DNA of 64,000 nt, taken from assembly GCA_007134735.1 (NCBI GenBank), contig SLKG01000082.1:2731-66730 (forward strand). The letters run 5' to 3'. The position numbers and the translations under genes were made by a program. Below are positions 22,648 to 44,156 of this stretch, one piece after another. How positions within the stretch are numbered: position 1 is the stretch's first letter; the number at the start of each line of letters is the position of its first letter. The notes under the pieces were generated by a model. The model did not search any database, was not told the origin of the DNA, and saw only the letters and a list, made by a program, of their open reading frames with translations. The DNA comes from Kiritimatiellia bacterium (GTDB lineage: Bacteria > Verrucomicrobiota > Kiritimatiellia > SLAD01).

Positions 22648-22725
22648 GGAGGGCGAGGCTCCCGCCGAGCCGGGAAATCACCGACACACCCGGTGCTCCA
22701 CGGCTCGGCGGGAGCCTTGCCCTCC
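22648..22725. repeat. REP-like hairpin element, family 1 (GGAGGGCGAGGCTCCCGCCGAGCCG ... CGGCTCGGCGGGAGCCTTGCCCTCC)
   Basis: 25-bp arms around a 28-nt loop; related copies at 30668-30691 (half element) and in the 42.6-kb tandem array. Confidence 0.65.
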
Positions 22726-30667: not shown

Positions 30668-30691
30668 GGCTCGGCGGGAGCCTCGCCCTCC
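30668..30691. repeat. half copy of REP-like family 1 element (CGGCTCGGCGGGAGCCTCGCCCTCC)
   Basis: Downstream of GH57 giant gene / upstream of aminotransferase. Confidence 0.5.
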
Positions 30692-38384: not shown

Positions 38385-39704
38385 ATGATACCGCGATACA
38401 CCCGCCCCGAAATGGGGGCCATCTGGTCCGATGAGAACAAATACCAAAACTGGCTGGCCATCGAGGTGCTGGCTTGTGAGGCCATGCATCGACGGGGTCA
38501 GATCCCCGGACCGGATCTGAAGCGGATACAAAAGAAAGCACGTTTCGACATTCAACGAATCGAGGAAATCGAGCAGAAAGTCGATCATGATGTAATCGCC
38601 TTTCTGACCTGTGTGGCCGAACATGTGGGTCCTTCGGCCCGGTATATACACAAGGGGTTGACCAGTTCCGACGTGTTGGACACAGCGCTTGCGGTTCAGA
38701 TGGTCCAAGCGTCCGACCTGCTCATTCAAGGGGTGAAAACCGTGCGACGGGCCGCCGCTCAAAAAGCGCGGAAATACCAATACACCCCCATGATCGGACG
38801 CTCGCACGGCGTACATGCCGAACCCACGACGTTTGGGCTAAAAATGGCTCTGCTGTACGACGAATTCGGCCGCGCCCTGAAGCGCCTGGAGGCTGCGCGT
38901 GAAACCGTGCGCGTCGGGCAGCTTTCCGGCGCGGTCGGCACCCATGCGCACCTGGATCCCGCCATAGAAAAATACGTGTGTACGCGGCTTAAATTAAAAC
39001 CCGCCACGCTTTCCACCCAAATCCTCCAAAGGGATCGTCATGCGGAATTTGTATCCACCCTGGCACTCGTCGCCTCGTCCGTGGAGCGGTGGGCCCAGGA
39101 ATTCCGCCATCTTCAGCGTACCGAGGTGCTCGAGGTGGAAGAACATTTCGGAAAAGATCAGAAGGGTTCCTCCGCCATGCCGCACAAAAAGAATCCCATC
39201 ATTGGAGAACGGCTTTGCGGCATGGCGCGCCTGGTGCGGGGTTACGCGTTAACCGCCATGGAGAATGTGGCCTTGTGGCACGAACGCGATATCTCCCACT
39301 CCTCCGCCGAGCGCGTGATCCTGCCGGACGCCTGTATCGCCCTCGATTACATGCTGGCCAAACTCGAACACCTGGTGCGCACGTTGAAGGTGTATCCGAA
39401 GCGTATGGAACAGAACCTGAACGCCACACACGGACTCGTGCACTCGCAGTCCGTGTTGCTGATGTTAACCGAACAGGGCGTGTCCCGGGAGATGGCCTAC
39501 CGATGGGTTCAACGTAACGCGATGAAGGCCTGGGAGGACGGAAACGATTTCAAGACCCTGCTCGAAAACGATCCCGATATCAAGCGGCGGATCAAGCCGG
39601 AGGCTCTGGAAGCGGCGTTCGACCTGAAGAAACATTTCCGGCACGTGGACCGGGCCTTCCGGGCCTTGGGACTGGGCAAGAGAGCGGGCCGATCTTCAAC
39701 ATAA
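38385..39704 (+). CDS. purB: adenylosuccinate lyase
   Basis: 439 aa; MIPRYTRPEMGAIWSDENKYQNWL N-terminus and fumarate-lyase signature GSSAMPHKKNP. Confidence 0.95.
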   Translation: MIPRYTRPEMGAIWSDENKYQNWLAIEVLACEAMHRRGQIPGPDLKRIQKKARFDIQRIEEIEQKVDHDVIAFLTCVAEHVGPSARYIHKGLTSSDVLDTALAVQMVQASDLLIQGVKTVRRAAAQKARKYQYTPMIGRSHGVHAEPTTFGLKMALLYDEFGRALKRLEAARETVRVGQLSGAVGTHAHLDPAIEKYVCTRLKLKPATLSTQILQRDRHAEFVSTLALVASSVERWAQEFRHLQRTEVLEVEEHFGKDQKGSSAMPHKKNPIIGERLCGMARLVRGYALTAMENVALWHERDISHSSAERVILPDACIALDYMLAKLEHLVRTLKVYPKRMEQNLNATHGLVHSQSVLLMLTEQGVSREMAYRWVQRNAMKAWEDGNDFKTLLENDPDIKRRIKPEALEAAFDLKKHFRHVDRAFRALGLGKRAGRSST

Positions 39705-39739: not shown

Positions 39740-41374
39740 ATGAACAAAATCCAACGAGCCATCATTAGTGTCAGCGACAAAACAAACATGGTGGAGTTTG
39801 CCTCCGCATTGGCGGAAATGGGCGTTGAAATACTGTCCACCGGGGGAACGGCCGGCGCGTTGCGCGATGCCGGCATCGCCGTCACCGATGTGTCTGAATT
39901 CACCGGGTTTCCCGAGATGCTCGACGGGCGCGTCAAGACACTTCACCCGCACGTGCACGCCGGCATCCTTTTTCGCCGGGACCGGGCGGAGCATGTGCAA
40001 ACCATGAAGGAACACCGATTGGCGCCGGTTGACCTGGTTTGTGTCAATCTGTATCCCTTTGAAGACACGATCGCCGATAAAACCGCCTCGTTTGAGGACG
40101 CGATCGAGAACATCGACATCGGCGGCCCTGCCATGCTTCGGTCCGCCGCCAAGAATTTCAGTGCCGTCACCGTCGTCGTCGATCCGGCCGATTATACCCG
40201 CGTACTGGAGGACATGAAGACCCACCAGGGGCAAACCACGGAAGCCCTTCGGATGGAACTGGCGCAAAAAGTGTTCGCACGGCTGGCGGCGTACAATGCC
40301 GCCATCGCGCACTATCTCTGCGAACACATCCCGGCGGAGAAGCAGGCGCCGCCCTTTGTGTTGGCCTATGGCGCGGGAACCACCCTGCGGTACGGGGAGA
40401 ACCCACACCAGGAAGCGGCGCTCTACCGGGATGCGCACACCTCCGGCGCAACGCTGGCCCACGCGGAGCAATGGCACGGGAAGGAGCTTTCCTACAACAA
40501 TTATCTCGATGGCGACGCCGCCCTGGAAGCGGCCCGGGAGCTGGCCGATCAAACCGGTGTGGCCATCATCAAGCATTCCAATCCCTGTGGCTACGCCACG
40601 GGAAAGAATCTTTCCGAAGCGTTTGAAGCGGCCTGGGCCGGCGATCCGGTTTCGGCGTTCGGCAGCGTGATCGCGGTTACACGGCGGGTAACGCTCGACA
40701 TGGCCGAGCAGTTGAAAGGGCGTTTCGTCGAGGTACTGATCGCGCCGGACTTTGACAAAGACGCGCTGGAATACCTCAAGCAAAAGAGCGCCAGCCTGCG
40801 CCTCCTCAAGCTCACGCGCCCCCTGGCCCCGCTTCCGCCGGGAAATACGGTTCGCCCGATTTCCGGCGGATTGCTTGTCCAGAGCCGCGATATCGGGCTG
40901 ATGGATAACTGGTTTGTGCCGACGGAAACACCGTTTCCGGAAGAACGCCGCGCATTGGCTGAATTCGGCATCGCCGCCTGTAAACACGTCAAATCCAACG
41001 CTATTGTCATCGTACGCGAGTACGCGCCGGGCCAATTCATGCAACTGGGCATGGGGGCCGGCCAACCGAACCGGGTGGACGCCCTGCGCAAACTGGCGCT
41101 GGCACGTTGTACCGAAAACATGGAAAAATTATTCGCGACCGAGAAGGTATATGGAAAAACCCTTCCGGAATATCAAATGGAGATTCTGCACGATTGCGTG
41201 TTGGTGTCCGACGCCTTCTTCCCGTTCGCCGACAGCATTGAATACGCGGCGGAGGCCGGCATCCGCAATATCGTTCAACCCGGCGGATCAAAACGGGACG
41301 AAGAAGTAATCTCCAAGTGCGATCAATACGGCATTGCCATGGCCTTCACCGGGATGCGCCATTTCCGGCATTAA
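39740..41374 (+). CDS. purH: bifunctional AICAR transformylase / IMP cyclohydrolase
   Basis: 544 aa; MGS-like N-domain ISVSDKT...LSTGGTA and AICARFT domain; ends MRHFRH. Confidence 0.95.
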   Translation: MNKIQRAIISVSDKTNMVEFASALAEMGVEILSTGGTAGALRDAGIAVTDVSEFTGFPEMLDGRVKTLHPHVHAGILFRRDRAEHVQTMKEHRLAPVDLVCVNLYPFEDTIADKTASFEDAIENIDIGGPAMLRSAAKNFSAVTVVVDPADYTRVLEDMKTHQGQTTEALRMELAQKVFARLAAYNAAIAHYLCEHIPAEKQAPPFVLAYGAGTTLRYGENPHQEAALYRDAHTSGATLAHAEQWHGKELSYNNYLDGDAALEAARELADQTGVAIIKHSNPCGYATGKNLSEAFEAAWAGDPVSAFGSVIAVTRRVTLDMAEQLKGRFVEVLIAPDFDKDALEYLKQKSASLRLLKLTRPLAPLPPGNTVRPISGGLLVQSRDIGLMDNWFVPTETPFPEERRALAEFGIAACKHVKSNAIVIVREYAPGQFMQLGMGAGQPNRVDALRKLALARCTENMEKLFATEKVYGKTLPEYQMEILHDCVLVSDAFFPFADSIEYAAEAGIRNIVQPGGSKRDEEVISKCDQYGIAMAFTGMRHFRH

Positions 41375-41463
41375 GACCGAAGAGGGTCGTGCGGCGCTTC
41401 GCATACGCTCGTCCCTTTGTTCCGGCATCCTTGCGCACGGACCGAAACCTCCGTGGCTCCGGG

Positions 41464-42114
41464 TCACCGCTTCCGCCGAGTTCGGGCAACATCTCGCGAC
41501 AGGGTGATGATCGTCTTGGGAAGAAAAGGCGCCGCTTCCTTGGGAATGACGATATGGAGCCGGTGCATGGCCCCCGACAAATACGGCAAGTCCGGCGTGT
41601 GGCCGGCATCAAAAATAGATTGCAGGTCGTCCATGTCCTTGGCTCGCAGGCGCGTCGAGGATAAGGCATGCAGCTTGGAGAGAATGACATCTTCGAGCGT
41701 GAGCACCGGCACCGGGCCAAAACCGAAATTCACCTGGTTGAATTGCGCGCGTGTTACGGCCTCCCCAGCCCAGGGAATGGCCGGTAGAAGGATATCAACG
41801 CCTTCTCCGGACGTGTCGTCCTTGGCGCGCCCAAACACCATGAGCGGTTTCGTGCTCTTGCGACGGATAGCGAAGAGCGGGCCGCCCGCCAGATCGGCCT
41901 CGCGGGCTATGCCCGCGTGCAAACCCAATGAACGGATGATTTCCGCGGCCGTTCGAAGTCCCTTCGTCCCGGTTGCTATGACCAAGTCCACATCCATGGT
42001 CAGCCGGGGCTCGCGCCGGTACAGGTCGGCGGCAAACCCGCCGGCCACGGCGAAGGGGACCTTTCTCCTGCGTAGTTCAGCCACGGCCGATTGGAACAGC
42101 TTATCGAGCTTCAT
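41464..42114 (-). CDS. minimal nucleotidyltransferase (AbiEii/DUF1814-like, Pol-beta superfamily)
   Basis: 216 aa; VAGGFAADLY...RLTMDVDLVI = G[GS]..x9-13 DxD NTase motif; overlaps upstream wHTH gene by 14 nt. Confidence 0.5.
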   Translation of the reverse strand: MKLDKLFQSAVAELRRRKVPFAVAGGFAADLYRREPRLTMDVDLVIATGTKGLRTAAEIIRSLGLHAGIAREADLAGGPLFAIRRKSTKPLMVFGRAKDDTSGEGVDILLPAIPWAGEAVTRAQFNQVNFGFGPVPVLTLEDVILSKLHALSSTRLRAKDMDDLQSIFDAGHTPDLPYLSGAMHRLHIVIPKEAAPFLPKTIITLSRDVARTRRKR

Positions 42115-42484
42115 CCTTCGATCTCCTTGCGTGCGCGCGGATTTTGTTCGCCCGGTTCAACAACGGTAGAATACGACGCGCCGTGCGATTCAAGGAACGG
42201 CTCCGCATTTTGATGAAGCCGCGTTCCGAAGCCTCAAATACCGGCATGAGCACCTCGGCATGCGGATGGTTCCGGTTCAGATGGTATAATGCGCGGGAGC
42301 CCCTTCGTTTCCTCTTCACCATTCCCGCTTCGACCAGTGAGGACAACGCCAATTCCGCTGAATGCGGGTGTACGTCTGCGAGTCTCGCCGCCTGCCGCAA
42401 ACCGATGGGATCCGCATGATGCGACAAGGCCCTCAGGATCTCCGCCTGGCTTACCGTACTAAATAATGTTCCCCAATTAGCCAT
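42101..42484 (-). CDS. winged-helix DNA-binding protein (MarR/ArsR-like), putative partner/antitoxin of the NTase
   Basis: 127 aa; predicted wHTH SQAEILRALSHHADPIGLRQAARLADVHPHSAELALSSLVEAGMV; translationally coupled to NTase. Confidence 0.5.
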   Translation of the reverse strand: MANWGTLFSTVSQAEILRALSHHADPIGLRQAARLADVHPHSAELALSSLVEAGMVKRKRRGSRALYHLNRNHPHAEVLMPVFEASERGFIKMRSRSLNRTARRILPLLNRANKIRAHARRSKDEAR

Positions 42485-42525
42485 AATTATATGTACAACT
42501 ATTTAGACACTTATTGCAACCGAAA

Positions 42526-42556
42526 AATGCCCGCACCGGATCCTGTGCGGGCTGTG
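42526..42556 (-). terminator. hairpin plus T-tract (minus strand) between repeat array and wHTH-NTase operon
   Basis: gcccgcac-aggatccg-gtgcgggc followed by aTTTTT on the minus strand. Confidence 0.4.
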
Positions 42557-42595
42557 TCAAGAAACCGCTCATACCGCAACCGCGGGATTCGCCCC

Positions 42596-42885
42596 CCCCA
42601 TATCAACGAATAACCGTTAATTTTAGGTGGAGGGCGAGGCTCTCGCCGAGCCGGGATCGCTCCGCACGCATCGCCTGTCTCCCGGCTCAGCAGGAGCTTC
42701 GCCCTCCATACCAACGAATAACTGTTGCTTTGTTGTTAAGGGCTGGGGCGAGGCTCTCGCCGAGCCGGGATCGCTCCGCACGCATCGCCTGTCTCACGGC
42801 TCAGCAGGAGCTTCGCCCTCCATCACCAACGAATAACAGTTGCTCTGTTGTTAAGGGCTGGGGCGAGGGTCTTGACGAGCCAGAA
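42596..42885. repeat. tandem array (~116-bp unit x 2.5) of long REP-like hairpins (family 1-related)
   Basis: Units begin CA(T/C)(A/C)CAACGAATAAC(C/T)GTT...; each contains GGAGGGCGAGGCTCTCGCCGAGCCGGGA / TCCCGGCTCAGCAGGAGCTTCGCCCTCC arms around a 25-nt loop; unit-to-unit identity >90%. Confidence 0.75.
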
Positions 42886-43004
42886 ATCGGTTTTGATACA
42901 GCCCCAGGACGGCGCTTTGTTGAACTACAGACGTGTTCAAGACGAGCTTATCACTCACGGCGATATTGCACGACAAGTTGTGTAATATCCGGGCTAAAAA
43001 ACCC

Positions 43005-44156
43005 CTACAACGCGCGATTCAAGATCGCACGTAATTCCTCATCGGTCAGTTCGATGGGATTGCCTTTCATGCTGCTCGATCGGCGGGATTTGGGGATGAT
43101 GTCGGCAAAATCCGTTTCGGCGATGCCGTATGCCGCCAACGGCGGAACATCAAGGGTTTCGCACAGGTCCCGCACCCAGGCAAGCCCGTCTTCGGTTCCG
43201 GCGCCGGGCCGTCCGGTCAGCATTTTCGCGATTTCTTCATAACGACACAACGACGTGTGATCCGGATCGCGCGCCTGCAGGGCCGTGATATTGGCTTCCA
43301 TGACAAACGGCAACAGCCGAGCGCACACCGCGCCGTGCGGCGCCGGGTACATGCCGCCGAGCGGTCCGGCCAAGCCGTGTACGGCGCCCAGCCGCGCGTT
43401 GGCCAGCGCCATCCCGCTGAAGAGTGCCGCAAGGCACATGTCTGAACGCGCCTTCGCGTCCCGCCCGTCTTCCCACGCCGTGCGCAAACTCCCCGCACGT
43501 CGCAAACCCTCGCGGCACACCGCGTCGGTGACCGGGTTCGCATTATCGCTCACGAAAACCTCCATAAGCTGGGTCAACGCGTCCAATCCCGACGCGGCCG
43601 TCGCCGCGCGCGGAAGATCGTACGTGAGTTCGGGATCCACCACGGCATATCGCGGCAGCATAAGATGACTTCGCATGCTGACCTTGACCCGGTGTTCCGG
43701 GGACCCCACCACGGCGTTACGGGTCACCTCGGCGCCGGTCCCGGCCGTGGTCGGAACGGCGATGAACGGCGCGGCGGGGCGCGCCAGCGGTTTGCCCCGG
43801 CCGATGATCTCAAGATAATCCGGCACATCGCCCTCGTTCGTCATCAGCGCGGAAATCATTTTGGCCGTATCCATTACGCTTCCGCCGCCGATGCCGACGA
43901 CCACATCGCAACCGGCTTCGCGCGCCCGATTCAAACCCTCCGCGATCGTTTCCGTGGTGGGTTCGCCGGAAACGCTGAACTCGGTTGCGCGGGTATTCTG
44001 ATCCTTAAGCCGACCGAGAAGCGCGGACGCGTATCGACGGGAACGGCCGGTTACGAGTAACACGTGTTTTCCCGATTCGGCCGCCAGGGCCGGCACGGTT
44101 CCGACGGTCCCTTCCCCGAAGATGATTCTTCCGGCTGTGGCAAATTCAAAGTTCAT
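43005..44156 (-). CDS. iron-containing alcohol dehydrogenase
   Basis: 383 aa; Fe-ADH signatures GGGSVMDTAK and metal-binding His cluster. Confidence 0.85.
   Translation of the reverse strand: MNFEFATAGRIIFGEGTVGTVPALAAESGKHVLLVTGRSRRYASALLGRLKDQNTRATEFSVSGEPTTETIAEGLNRAREAGCDVVVGIGGGSVMDTAKMISALMTNEGDVPDYLEIIGRGKPLARPAAPFIAVPTTAGTGAEVTRNAVVGSPEHRVKVSMRSHLMLPRYAVVDPELTYDLPRAATAASGLDALTQLMEVFVSDNANPVTDAVCREGLRRAGSLRTAWEDGRDAKARSDMCLAALFSGMALANARLGAVHGLAGPLGGMYPAPHGAVCARLLPFVMEANITALQARDPDHTSLCRYEEIAKMLTGRPGAGTEDGLAWVRDLCETLDVPPLAAYGIAETDFADIIPKSRRSSSMKGNPIELTDEELRAILNRAL

Follow-up and report, generated by a model that had tools for sequence, protein, structure and literature searches.

In the 64,000-nucleotide (nt) stretch of contig SLKG01000082.1 from a Kiritimatiellia bacterium analysed here (the window, to which all coordinates refer), two overlapping genes lie on the minus strand next to purH. 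The upstream gene (42101-42484) encodes a 127-amino-acid (aa) protein made up of a predicted winged helix-turn-helix (wHTH) domain and a long C-terminal helix, and the downstream gene (41464-42114) encodes a 216-aa nucleotidyltransferase (NTase) of the DUF1814/AbiEii family. We consider that the locus is probably a two-gene DUF1814 (AbiEii/MenT) toxin-antitoxin cassette, in which the NTase would be a toxin similar to MenT1 of Mycobacterium tuberculosis, and the wHTH protein would act both as an autorepressor and as an antitoxin that neutralizes the toxin through its helix. The coordinates in the list of open reading frames (ORFs) agree with a preliminary description of this DNA, made from the sequence letters, in giving a minus-strand pair of 127 and 216 aa that overlaps by 14 nt (42101-42114). 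The NTase ATG is at 42114-42112 and the TAA of the wHTH gene at 42103-42101, while a Shine-Dalgarno-like AAGGAG (42123-42128, minus strand) lies 8 nt before the NTase ATG, within the wHTH coding sequence; the overlap points to translational coupling of the two genes. The module consists of two ORFs only. Both appear to be real genes rather than chance ORFs, because the NTase has 218 homologues of about 215 aa, the wHTH protein has relatives in 176 sequence clusters, and the two genes are adjacent and overlapping in all of the loci that were inspected.

The affiliation of the NTase follows from both sequence and predicted structure. In Pfam, the protein matches PF08843 (AbiEii/DUF1814) over residues 20-180 with 37.8 bits against a cut-off of 22.5 (E 2.5e-9), and its sole significant sequence match in the PDB by phmmer is M. 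tuberculosis MenT1 (8an4, E 7e-5). An AlphaFold2 model computed from an alignment of 33 homologues (predicted local distance difference test (pLDDT) 82.6, predicted template-modelling (TM) score 0.80) has two MenT1 chains, 8an5_B and 8an4_A, as its top two Foldseek matches (E 1e-7, probability 1.00, TM 0.59/0.68), followed by ANT(2'')-Ia, JHP933 and MenT3/TglT. The identity to MenT1 is only about 22-24%. The preliminary description had likened the NTase to AbiEii/DUF1814 toxins, and the Pfam score, together with the ranking of MenT1 as the best PDB match by both sequence and fold, bears this out. Among the PADLOC models the protein matches only those for AbiEii, weakly and partially (best E 1.8e-7 over 62 residues), and no model of NCBIfam, the library that NCBI uses for naming bacterial proteins, matches it even at E <= 10. 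Nearly all of the 218 homologues, which were found with a word index, are 205-237 aa long, and nearly all of the 120 that were listed have a precomputed PF08843 match; the few that carry a name are called 'nucleotidyl transferase AbiEii/AbiGii toxin family protein' and come from metagenome-assembled genomes of Kiritimatiellae/Verrucomicrobia. Judged by its sequence and model, the 216-aa protein can be regarded as a recognized member of AbiEii/DUF1814, of a short, MenT1-like type. The claim that it is markedly shorter than its canonical counterparts holds with respect to the Pfam AbiEii profile, of which it covers positions 14-179 of 238, and canonical AbiEii is longer by about 50-80 aa; however, this size is not unprecedented, as the solved MenT1 chain has 196 residues and both toxins are small.

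Four motifs have been defined for DUF1814 proteins: motif I (hG[G/S]) and, about 15 residues on, motif II (DhD, with an Arg within the motif), as well as two that are specific to DUF1814, namely a Lys between hydrophobic residues (motif III) and +DxxD (motif IV) (PMC3985639). The 216-aa protein satisfies all four. Motif I is A24-G25-G26, with motif II following 14 residues on as R37-x-T39-x-D41-x-D43 (D41-V42-D43); motif III is I-L-S-K147-L-H-A-L; and motif IV is K159-D160-M-D-D163. R157, between motifs III and IV, and D107 belong to the same conserved set. Across the 33 homologues, which are 57-91% identical, G25, R37, T39, D43, D107, K147, R157, K159 and D163 are present in 33 of 33, D41 in 32 and D160 in 31. 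The pattern AGGFAADLY...DVDLVI, from which the preliminary description recognized the NTase, is found at residues 24-46, and its core residues are thus conserved in all homologues, with D41 replaced in one.

The catalytic residues can be paired with those of MenT1 through the HMMER alignment, using the roles assigned in MenT1 (PMC11375011). The numbering of R37, T39 and D41xD43 is identical in the two proteins. R37 corresponds to a residue that contacts the nucleotide, T39 to the phospho-acceptor, and D41-x-D43 to the Mg2+-binding motif. Further along, K147, R157 and D160 are the equivalents of K137, R146 and D149, all nucleotide contacts, and D163 is the equivalent of D152, a conserved NTase-fold residue that is required for NTase activity. 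T39 lies two residues before the DxD, aligns to the MenT1 phospho-acceptor and is invariant in the 33 homologues. The AlphaFold2 model has a pLDDT below 50 at residues 29-38, the loop before Thr39, and at residues 77-81, and is confident elsewhere; the low value in the loop is consistent with the mobile T39 loop of MenT1 but is no evidence for it.

The 127-aa partner is of a different standing, as no named family accounts for its full length. Its AlphaFold2 model (pLDDT 94.2) consists of a wHTH domain at about residues 11-69 and a single 51-residue helix at residues 76-126, with no second domain, and the fold matches are DNA-binding proteins of the MarR, ArsR/SmtB and Sso10a-2 types. Sequence searches return generic results: in Pfam a marginal match to HTH_IclR (22.5 bits against a cut-off of 22) and one to MarR_2, in NCBIfam a marginal match to a generic ArsR-type model, and in the PDB no match with the single sequence and only generic ArsR/SmtB-type matches with a profile of the family. 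A word-indexed search gave only two proteins, and exhaustive phmmer was needed to find the relatives; among 1.84 billion sequences representing clusters at 50% identity, it found 176 with E <= 1e-3, most of them 120-130 aa long and aligned end to end. No Pfam match at E <= 1e-3 is present in 43 of 48 aligned family members, and only two of the 48 match AbiEi_4, weakly. For the 127-aa protein itself, no AbiEi family of Pfam appears at E <= 10, and the PADLOC AbiEi model matches with an E-value of 0.037, in the wHTH part only. The term 'AbiE-like' in the preliminary description therefore applies to the toxin, which is an AbiEii protein, but not to the upstream protein, which is not an AbiEi homologue. 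To judge from these comparisons, the latter represents its own unnamed family of proteins of about 125 aa, related neither to AbiEi nor to MenA1, the antitoxin of MenT1.

Two conserved features of the partner stand out. On the distal part of the helix there is a hydrophobic stripe with 3-4 spacing (residues 98/102/105/109/112/116/119), which indicates a protein-protein interface. In the wHTH domain, the four closest partners share, without substitution, the putative recognition helix HPHSAE; this fits the conserved promoter site described below.

Some longer relatives of the wHTH protein share only its wHTH domain. Two of these (P0193 and P0187, about 210-220 aa) are fusions of the wHTH to a Pol-beta/NTP_transf_2 minimal nucleotidyltransferase (MNT), and they explain a weak match of the 127-aa protein to the PADLOC model PDC-M05A: the N-terminal wHTH of such wHTH-MNT proteins, which are the antitoxins of HEPN-MNT systems and have 200-220 aa, is weakly similar to the window wHTH, the likeness being limited to about 80-90 residues. 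The same type of wHTH would so appear to be common to two different families of NTase-based toxin-antitoxin systems. An assignment to PDC-M05 was rejected, as residues 6-79 of the protein match profile positions 9-82 of 201 (E 2e-6) and the match is not full-length. A HEPN-MNT (type VII) system was rejected as well; in the searches with hidden Markov models that the preliminary description had proposed, the NTase scores above the Pfam threshold for DUF1814/AbiEii, and neither protein of the pair matches NTP_transf_2, Polbeta or any HEPN family in Pfam. Also discarded was P0123, the second-best phmmer match to the wHTH protein (E 2e-26). It is a predicted protein of 1882 aa with about 22 near-identical repeats of about 85 residues, and only a short, biased stretch (…GVHPH…) is matched. 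Almost certainly, this protein results from translation of a tandem DNA repeat, and the match is false rather than a sign of relationship.

In databases, the window wHTH protein is recorded only in Logan and ENA, not in NCBI. For one homologous locus (L001; GCA_016929905.1, 424-1194), the NCBI gene list has no call upstream of the AbiEii gene, where the DNA encodes a wHTH gene; the same DNA in L002 (786-1148) has a 120-aa wHTH call. The antitoxin gene thus seems to be missed by some annotations. Its start was probably called six codons late in L002, and too early in L011, P0124 and P0128.

The two genes are inherited as a pair. In seven of seven other distinct loci (the loci retrieved were L001/L002, L003/L004, L005, L008/L009, L010 and L011/L012), a called gene of 120-141 aa lies directly upstream of the NTase gene and overlaps its start by 11-29 nt. 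The arrangement recurs for a remote member of the wHTH family, 25% identical to the window protein, whose gene overlaps a downstream 205-aa AbiEii gene by 4 nt, so that the overlaps at homologous loci are 4, 11 or 29 nt long. At these loci the partners are 37-46% and the NTases 62-67% identical to their counterparts in the window, and by this comparison the partner appears to evolve faster than the toxin. Faster divergence of the partner is expected for antitoxin-toxin pairs.

The surroundings of the pair are not conserved. In the window, it lies between purH (39740-41374, plus strand), itself preceded by purB (38385-39704, plus strand), and a gene for an Fe-type alcohol dehydrogenase (ADH; 43005-44156, minus strand). 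Its neighbours differ in every homologous locus that was inspected; examples are URO-D, SDR/DeoR/2-oxoacid dehydrogenase, gcvP/DUF2911, and transglutaminase/GDSL lipase genes. At L005 (3946-5531), a canonical AbiEi_1 plus AbiEii pair is directly upstream of the cassette, and at L011 (2810-3504), the cassette adjoins a 92-aa ORF and PIN-domain pair of VapBC-like type; these two arrangements suggest small toxin-antitoxin islands. An empty site was found through a purH protein search and contig look-ups. The closest purH relative located in this way (L013; purH 75% and ADH 68% identical) has the order purB, purH, ADH with no pair between, and the gap between the same two stop codons of purH and ADH is 70 bp, versus 1630 bp in the window. 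Two further relatives, with 72% purH identity, have other genes after purH, and scans of genome and metagenome contigs with the window purH gave only 45%-identical relatives and no empty site. Because the neighbourhood differs in each genome and the closest purH relative has an empty site, the pair is accessory rather than core, a mobile cassette inserted between purH and the Fe-ADH gene. This supports the view of the preliminary description, which saw a compact accessory module between housekeeping genes.

A further element shared by the homologous loci is a motif in the promoter region of the wHTH gene. In the window, a candidate promoter (42485-42519, minus strand) can be read, with a -35 hexamer TTGCAA (42519-42514), an 18-nt spacer and a -10 hexamer TACATA (42495-42490). 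In its spacer, and extending into the -10 hexamer, is an 18-bp imperfect palindrome, TGTCTAAATAGTTGTACA (42492-42509, minus strand), with half-sites TGTCTAA and TGTACAA, which is a candidate operator. It occurs once in the window, with 0.01 occurrences expected by chance. The promoter motif is common to all eight loci, though the wHTH proteins are only about 40% identical; each homologous locus has one copy of the palindrome, always just upstream of the wHTH ATG, with invariant alignment columns GTC.AA....TGTACA and, at L010, the variant TGTCTAAATATGTGTACA. The promoter spacer is 17-18 nt at the homologous loci, and in six other loci the -10 hexamer has the form TACAnT. Conservation of a palindrome within the promoter suggests autorepression. 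The wHTH mRNA may in addition be leaderless, as suggested by the position of the ATG, which lies 5-9 nt past the -10 hexamer in every locus (5 nt in the window, at 42484), and by the lack of a Shine-Dalgarno sequence upstream of the wHTH start in the loci that were read.

Several characterized systems are related to this cassette, which would work in the manner of AbiE and MenAT. MenAT1 of M. tuberculosis (Rv0078B-Rv0078A) provides the closest solved relative of the toxin and has the antitoxin gene upstream, and in both cases a helix is plausibly the neutralizing element. However, MenA1 has 68 aa and lacks a DNA-binding domain, and MenAT1 is not autoregulated (PMC10435456, PMC11375011), whereas the window partner has 127 aa, a wHTH and a candidate operator; it is thus not of the MenA1 type, having no sequence similarity to PDB chains beyond generic wHTH matches. 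The AbiE systems of Lactococcus lactis and Streptococcus agalactiae (AbiEi-AbiEii; COG5340-COG2253) resemble the window locus in being bicistronic, overlapping and regulator-first, and in having DUF1814 motifs I-IV, and inverted repeats in their promoter are the expected target for autorepression by the wHTH antitoxin (PMC3985639). In contrast to AbiEi, the window partner has no C-terminal antitoxicity domain and is not homologous, and it does not qualify as a canonical AbiE antitoxin. SanaTA, RlegTA and SdenTA, which came from shotgun cloning, pair small antitoxins with DUF1814 toxins in which a Ser/Thr at the corresponding position is the predicted phospho-acceptor. With 136 aa, SanaA is evidence that small DUF1814 antitoxins are already known; it is described as distantly COG5340-like with a conserved AbiEi loop, whereas the window partner has no detectable relation to that group, and it is by this description that we set the two apart. 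The kind of toxin-antitoxin system is accordingly well known, and the partner protein alone is of an undescribed type.

The mechanism we propose builds on what was computed here, namely the toxin family, the conservation of its catalytic and phospho-acceptor residues, the obligate pairing, the mobility of the cassette, the empty site in a relative and the promoter motif. Members of the family modify tRNA or block translation: MenT1, MenT3 and MenT4 add nucleotides to the 3' acceptor ends of tRNA (PMC10435456), and translation is blocked by AbiEii, whose NTase activity is specific for pyrimidines (bioRxiv 10.64898/2026.01.19.700257). By family membership, the MenT1-like NTase would be a toxin acting on tRNA. 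The wHTH domain, probably as a dimer, would bind the 18-bp palindrome and repress an operon whose first gene is leaderless, and the long amphipathic C-terminal helix would contact the toxin. Neutralization might then occur by sequestration and/or by induced auto-phosphorylation of Thr39, as MenA1 does with MenT1. The second mode is plausible, if tentative, because a single antitoxin helix induces the modification in MenAT1 and T39 is invariant here; for MenA1, it has been reported that one helix can be enough to bring about auto-phosphorylation of MenT1 T39 (PMC11375011). The label 'type IV' used in the preliminary description is outdated in this context, since in current descriptions of AbiE and MenAT systems the antitoxin binds the toxin and induces its auto-phosphorylation (PMC11375011; bioRxiv 10.64898/2026.01.19.700257).

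Some observations weigh against a toxin-antitoxin cassette working in this manner. With respect to the partner, hhalign gives a probability of 0.5% for its family profile against an AbiEi_1 protein, and the C-terminal helix alone has no sequence match in the PDB at E <= 10, though MenA1 is included there (8an5); a neutralization mechanism is thus not transferable by homology, and the helix may only dimerize, as in wHTH proteins of the Sso10a type. With respect to the toxin, Thr39 is a generally conserved residue of the DUF1814 fold, and its invariance is no proof of phospho-regulation; moreover, the family includes MenT2, which is without detectable activity (PMC11375011). The candidate promoter was not called by a strict sigma-70 scan and is our reading of the sequence. 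Finally, the G+C content of the module is about 0.60, equal to that of the surroundings and without a sign of recent transfer, and viral contigs, sequenced plasmids and phages contained no relative of the NTase, which leaves no sign of a known mobile element.

These observations, along with others, bear on four different explanations of the locus. The same parts could have been selected not for a role in stress or addiction but, as with lactococcal AbiE or SanaTA, for phage defence by abortive infection (Abi), in which a phage would deplete or inactivate a labile wHTH antitoxin and the freed NTase would stop translation. AbiE, the founding example, is itself an Abi system (PMC3985639), T7 is affected by two further DUF1814 systems, SanaTA and RlegTA (bioRxiv 10.64898/2026.01.19.700257), and the cassette at L005 adjoins a canonical AbiE pair; PADLOC models for AbiEii do match the NTase, but only weakly and partially. 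The window locus has housekeeping genes on either side and is not part of a defence island, AbiE of S. agalactiae conferred no resistance to 32 coliphages, and we regard a selected role in defence as somewhat unlikely. Less probable still is that the wHTH protein is a transcriptional repressor only, with no contact to the toxin, in the manner of a classical 'type IV' antitoxin and with the long helix serving as a dimerization coiled coil. A coiled coil would fit the 3-4 hydrophobic stripe, the best fold matches are dimeric DNA-binding proteins of the MarR/ArsR/Sso10a types, and AbiE was originally reported to be non-interacting (PMC3985639). AbiEi and AbiEii were, however, later reported to form a stable complex, with AbiE as type VII, and MenA1 and MenA3 act by contact; strict co-inheritance and overlapping frames in all loci likewise fit a stoichiometric partner.

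It is also conceivable that the cassette is a domesticated or decayed remnant without current toxic activity. MenT2, with its lack of detectable activity, would be a precedent, and a G+C content equal to the surroundings suggests long residence. Such decay is improbable given that the catalytic residues are intact and strongly conserved over the 33 homologues, and that both frames, their overlap and the promoter motif are intact. The explanation that fares worst is that the NTase modifies a small molecule, for example an aminoglycoside, under the control of a MarR-like repressor and is not a toxin. It draws on the position of ANT(2'')-Ia as third-best fold match (E 1.9e-4, TM 0.48/0.54) and on the fact that resistance genes are commonly controlled by MarR-like regulators. 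Yet the sequence places the protein in AbiEii with MenT1 as best match, it carries motifs III and IV, which are specific to DUF1814 and invariant, no NCBIfam model matches it at the threshold given above, and the two overlapping genes, with the regulator first, move together. We have rejected this explanation, which is very improbable, on the grounds of AbiEii membership, the MenT1 match and motifs III and IV.

If the locus is a toxin-antitoxin cassette as we propose, its interest lies mainly with the partner. DUF1814 (AbiEii/MenT) toxins are widespread translation-blocking enzymes, and their neutralization by very diverse antitoxins is an active question. We put forward, as a possibility short of an even chance, that the 127-aa family is an undescribed and widespread type of minimal, two-function antitoxin, in which a wHTH autorepresses a leaderless operon through a palindrome that varies little between hosts, and one amphipathic helix binds the toxin and triggers auto-phosphorylation of Thr39. 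If true, it would be the smallest known antitoxin to act on transcription, as AbiEi does, and also to neutralize with one helix, as MenA1 does, and would link the two best-studied DUF1814 systems. The antitoxin type is compact (about 125 aa) and apparently abundant, has no Pfam family and is uncalled in at least one NCBI annotation; for genome annotation, this implies that such short genes ahead of AbiEii should be called and associated with it. The candidate operator, which is unusually well conserved, makes for an easy experimental system for asking whether one helix and a wHTH suffice for autoregulation and toxin phosphorylation. In other respects the locus is an ordinary accessory toxin-antitoxin module. 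Beyond its recognition, the present analysis contributes an antitoxin family that had not been annotated, a relative that lacks the pair at the corresponding site, and a conserved candidate operator whose position suggests a leaderless transcript.

The remaining features lie on the ADH side of the pair, where the preliminary description had noted a hairpin with a T-tract and a tandem array of structured repeats. Both are present. The hairpin, detected in a terminator scan, is G+C-rich, is followed by ATTTTT and occupies 42529-42552 on the minus strand, upstream of the module promoter. By virtue of that position, it is more likely a terminator or insulator (42552-42529) against read-through from the ADH gene than a terminator of the module. 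The scan found three terminator-like sites versus 2.0 expected in shuffled sequences, and the hairpin alone is not significant.

The array, at about 42632-42881, has a 114-bp unit in 2.2 copies with 94% matches and adds to the enlarged intergenic region. Each unit forms a hairpin with G+C-rich arms of 29 bp (z = -5.2 versus shuffles). The window contains six copies of the hairpin core, GGAGGGCGARGCTC, versus 0.06 expected; this core is found outside the pair locus at 22648-22725 and 30678-30691, and also once in the purB-purH spacer of a relative (L015, 3751-3764). The repeat thus appears to be a dispersed, REP-like element of the lineage, and with the same hairpin elsewhere in the window and in the relative's spacer, the array was rejected as a part of the module. 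An Rfam search of 41300-43100 gave nothing meaningful; the sole match was a plant miRNA model on the hairpin repeat, at 26.9 bits against a gathering score of 168.

A 242-aa ORF (42514-43242, plus strand) is probably spurious, as it crosses the repeats and runs into the ADH gene, which is encoded on the opposite strand. A 15-nt inverted repeat with 93% complementarity, one arm inside the NTase gene (41840-41854) and the other 703 nt apart at 42558-42572, just upstream of the terminator-like hairpin, is probably due to chance. Beyond the ADH gene there is a small 106-aa ORF and then a 662-aa ORF, which we read as a putative GTP-type phosphoenolpyruvate carboxykinase.

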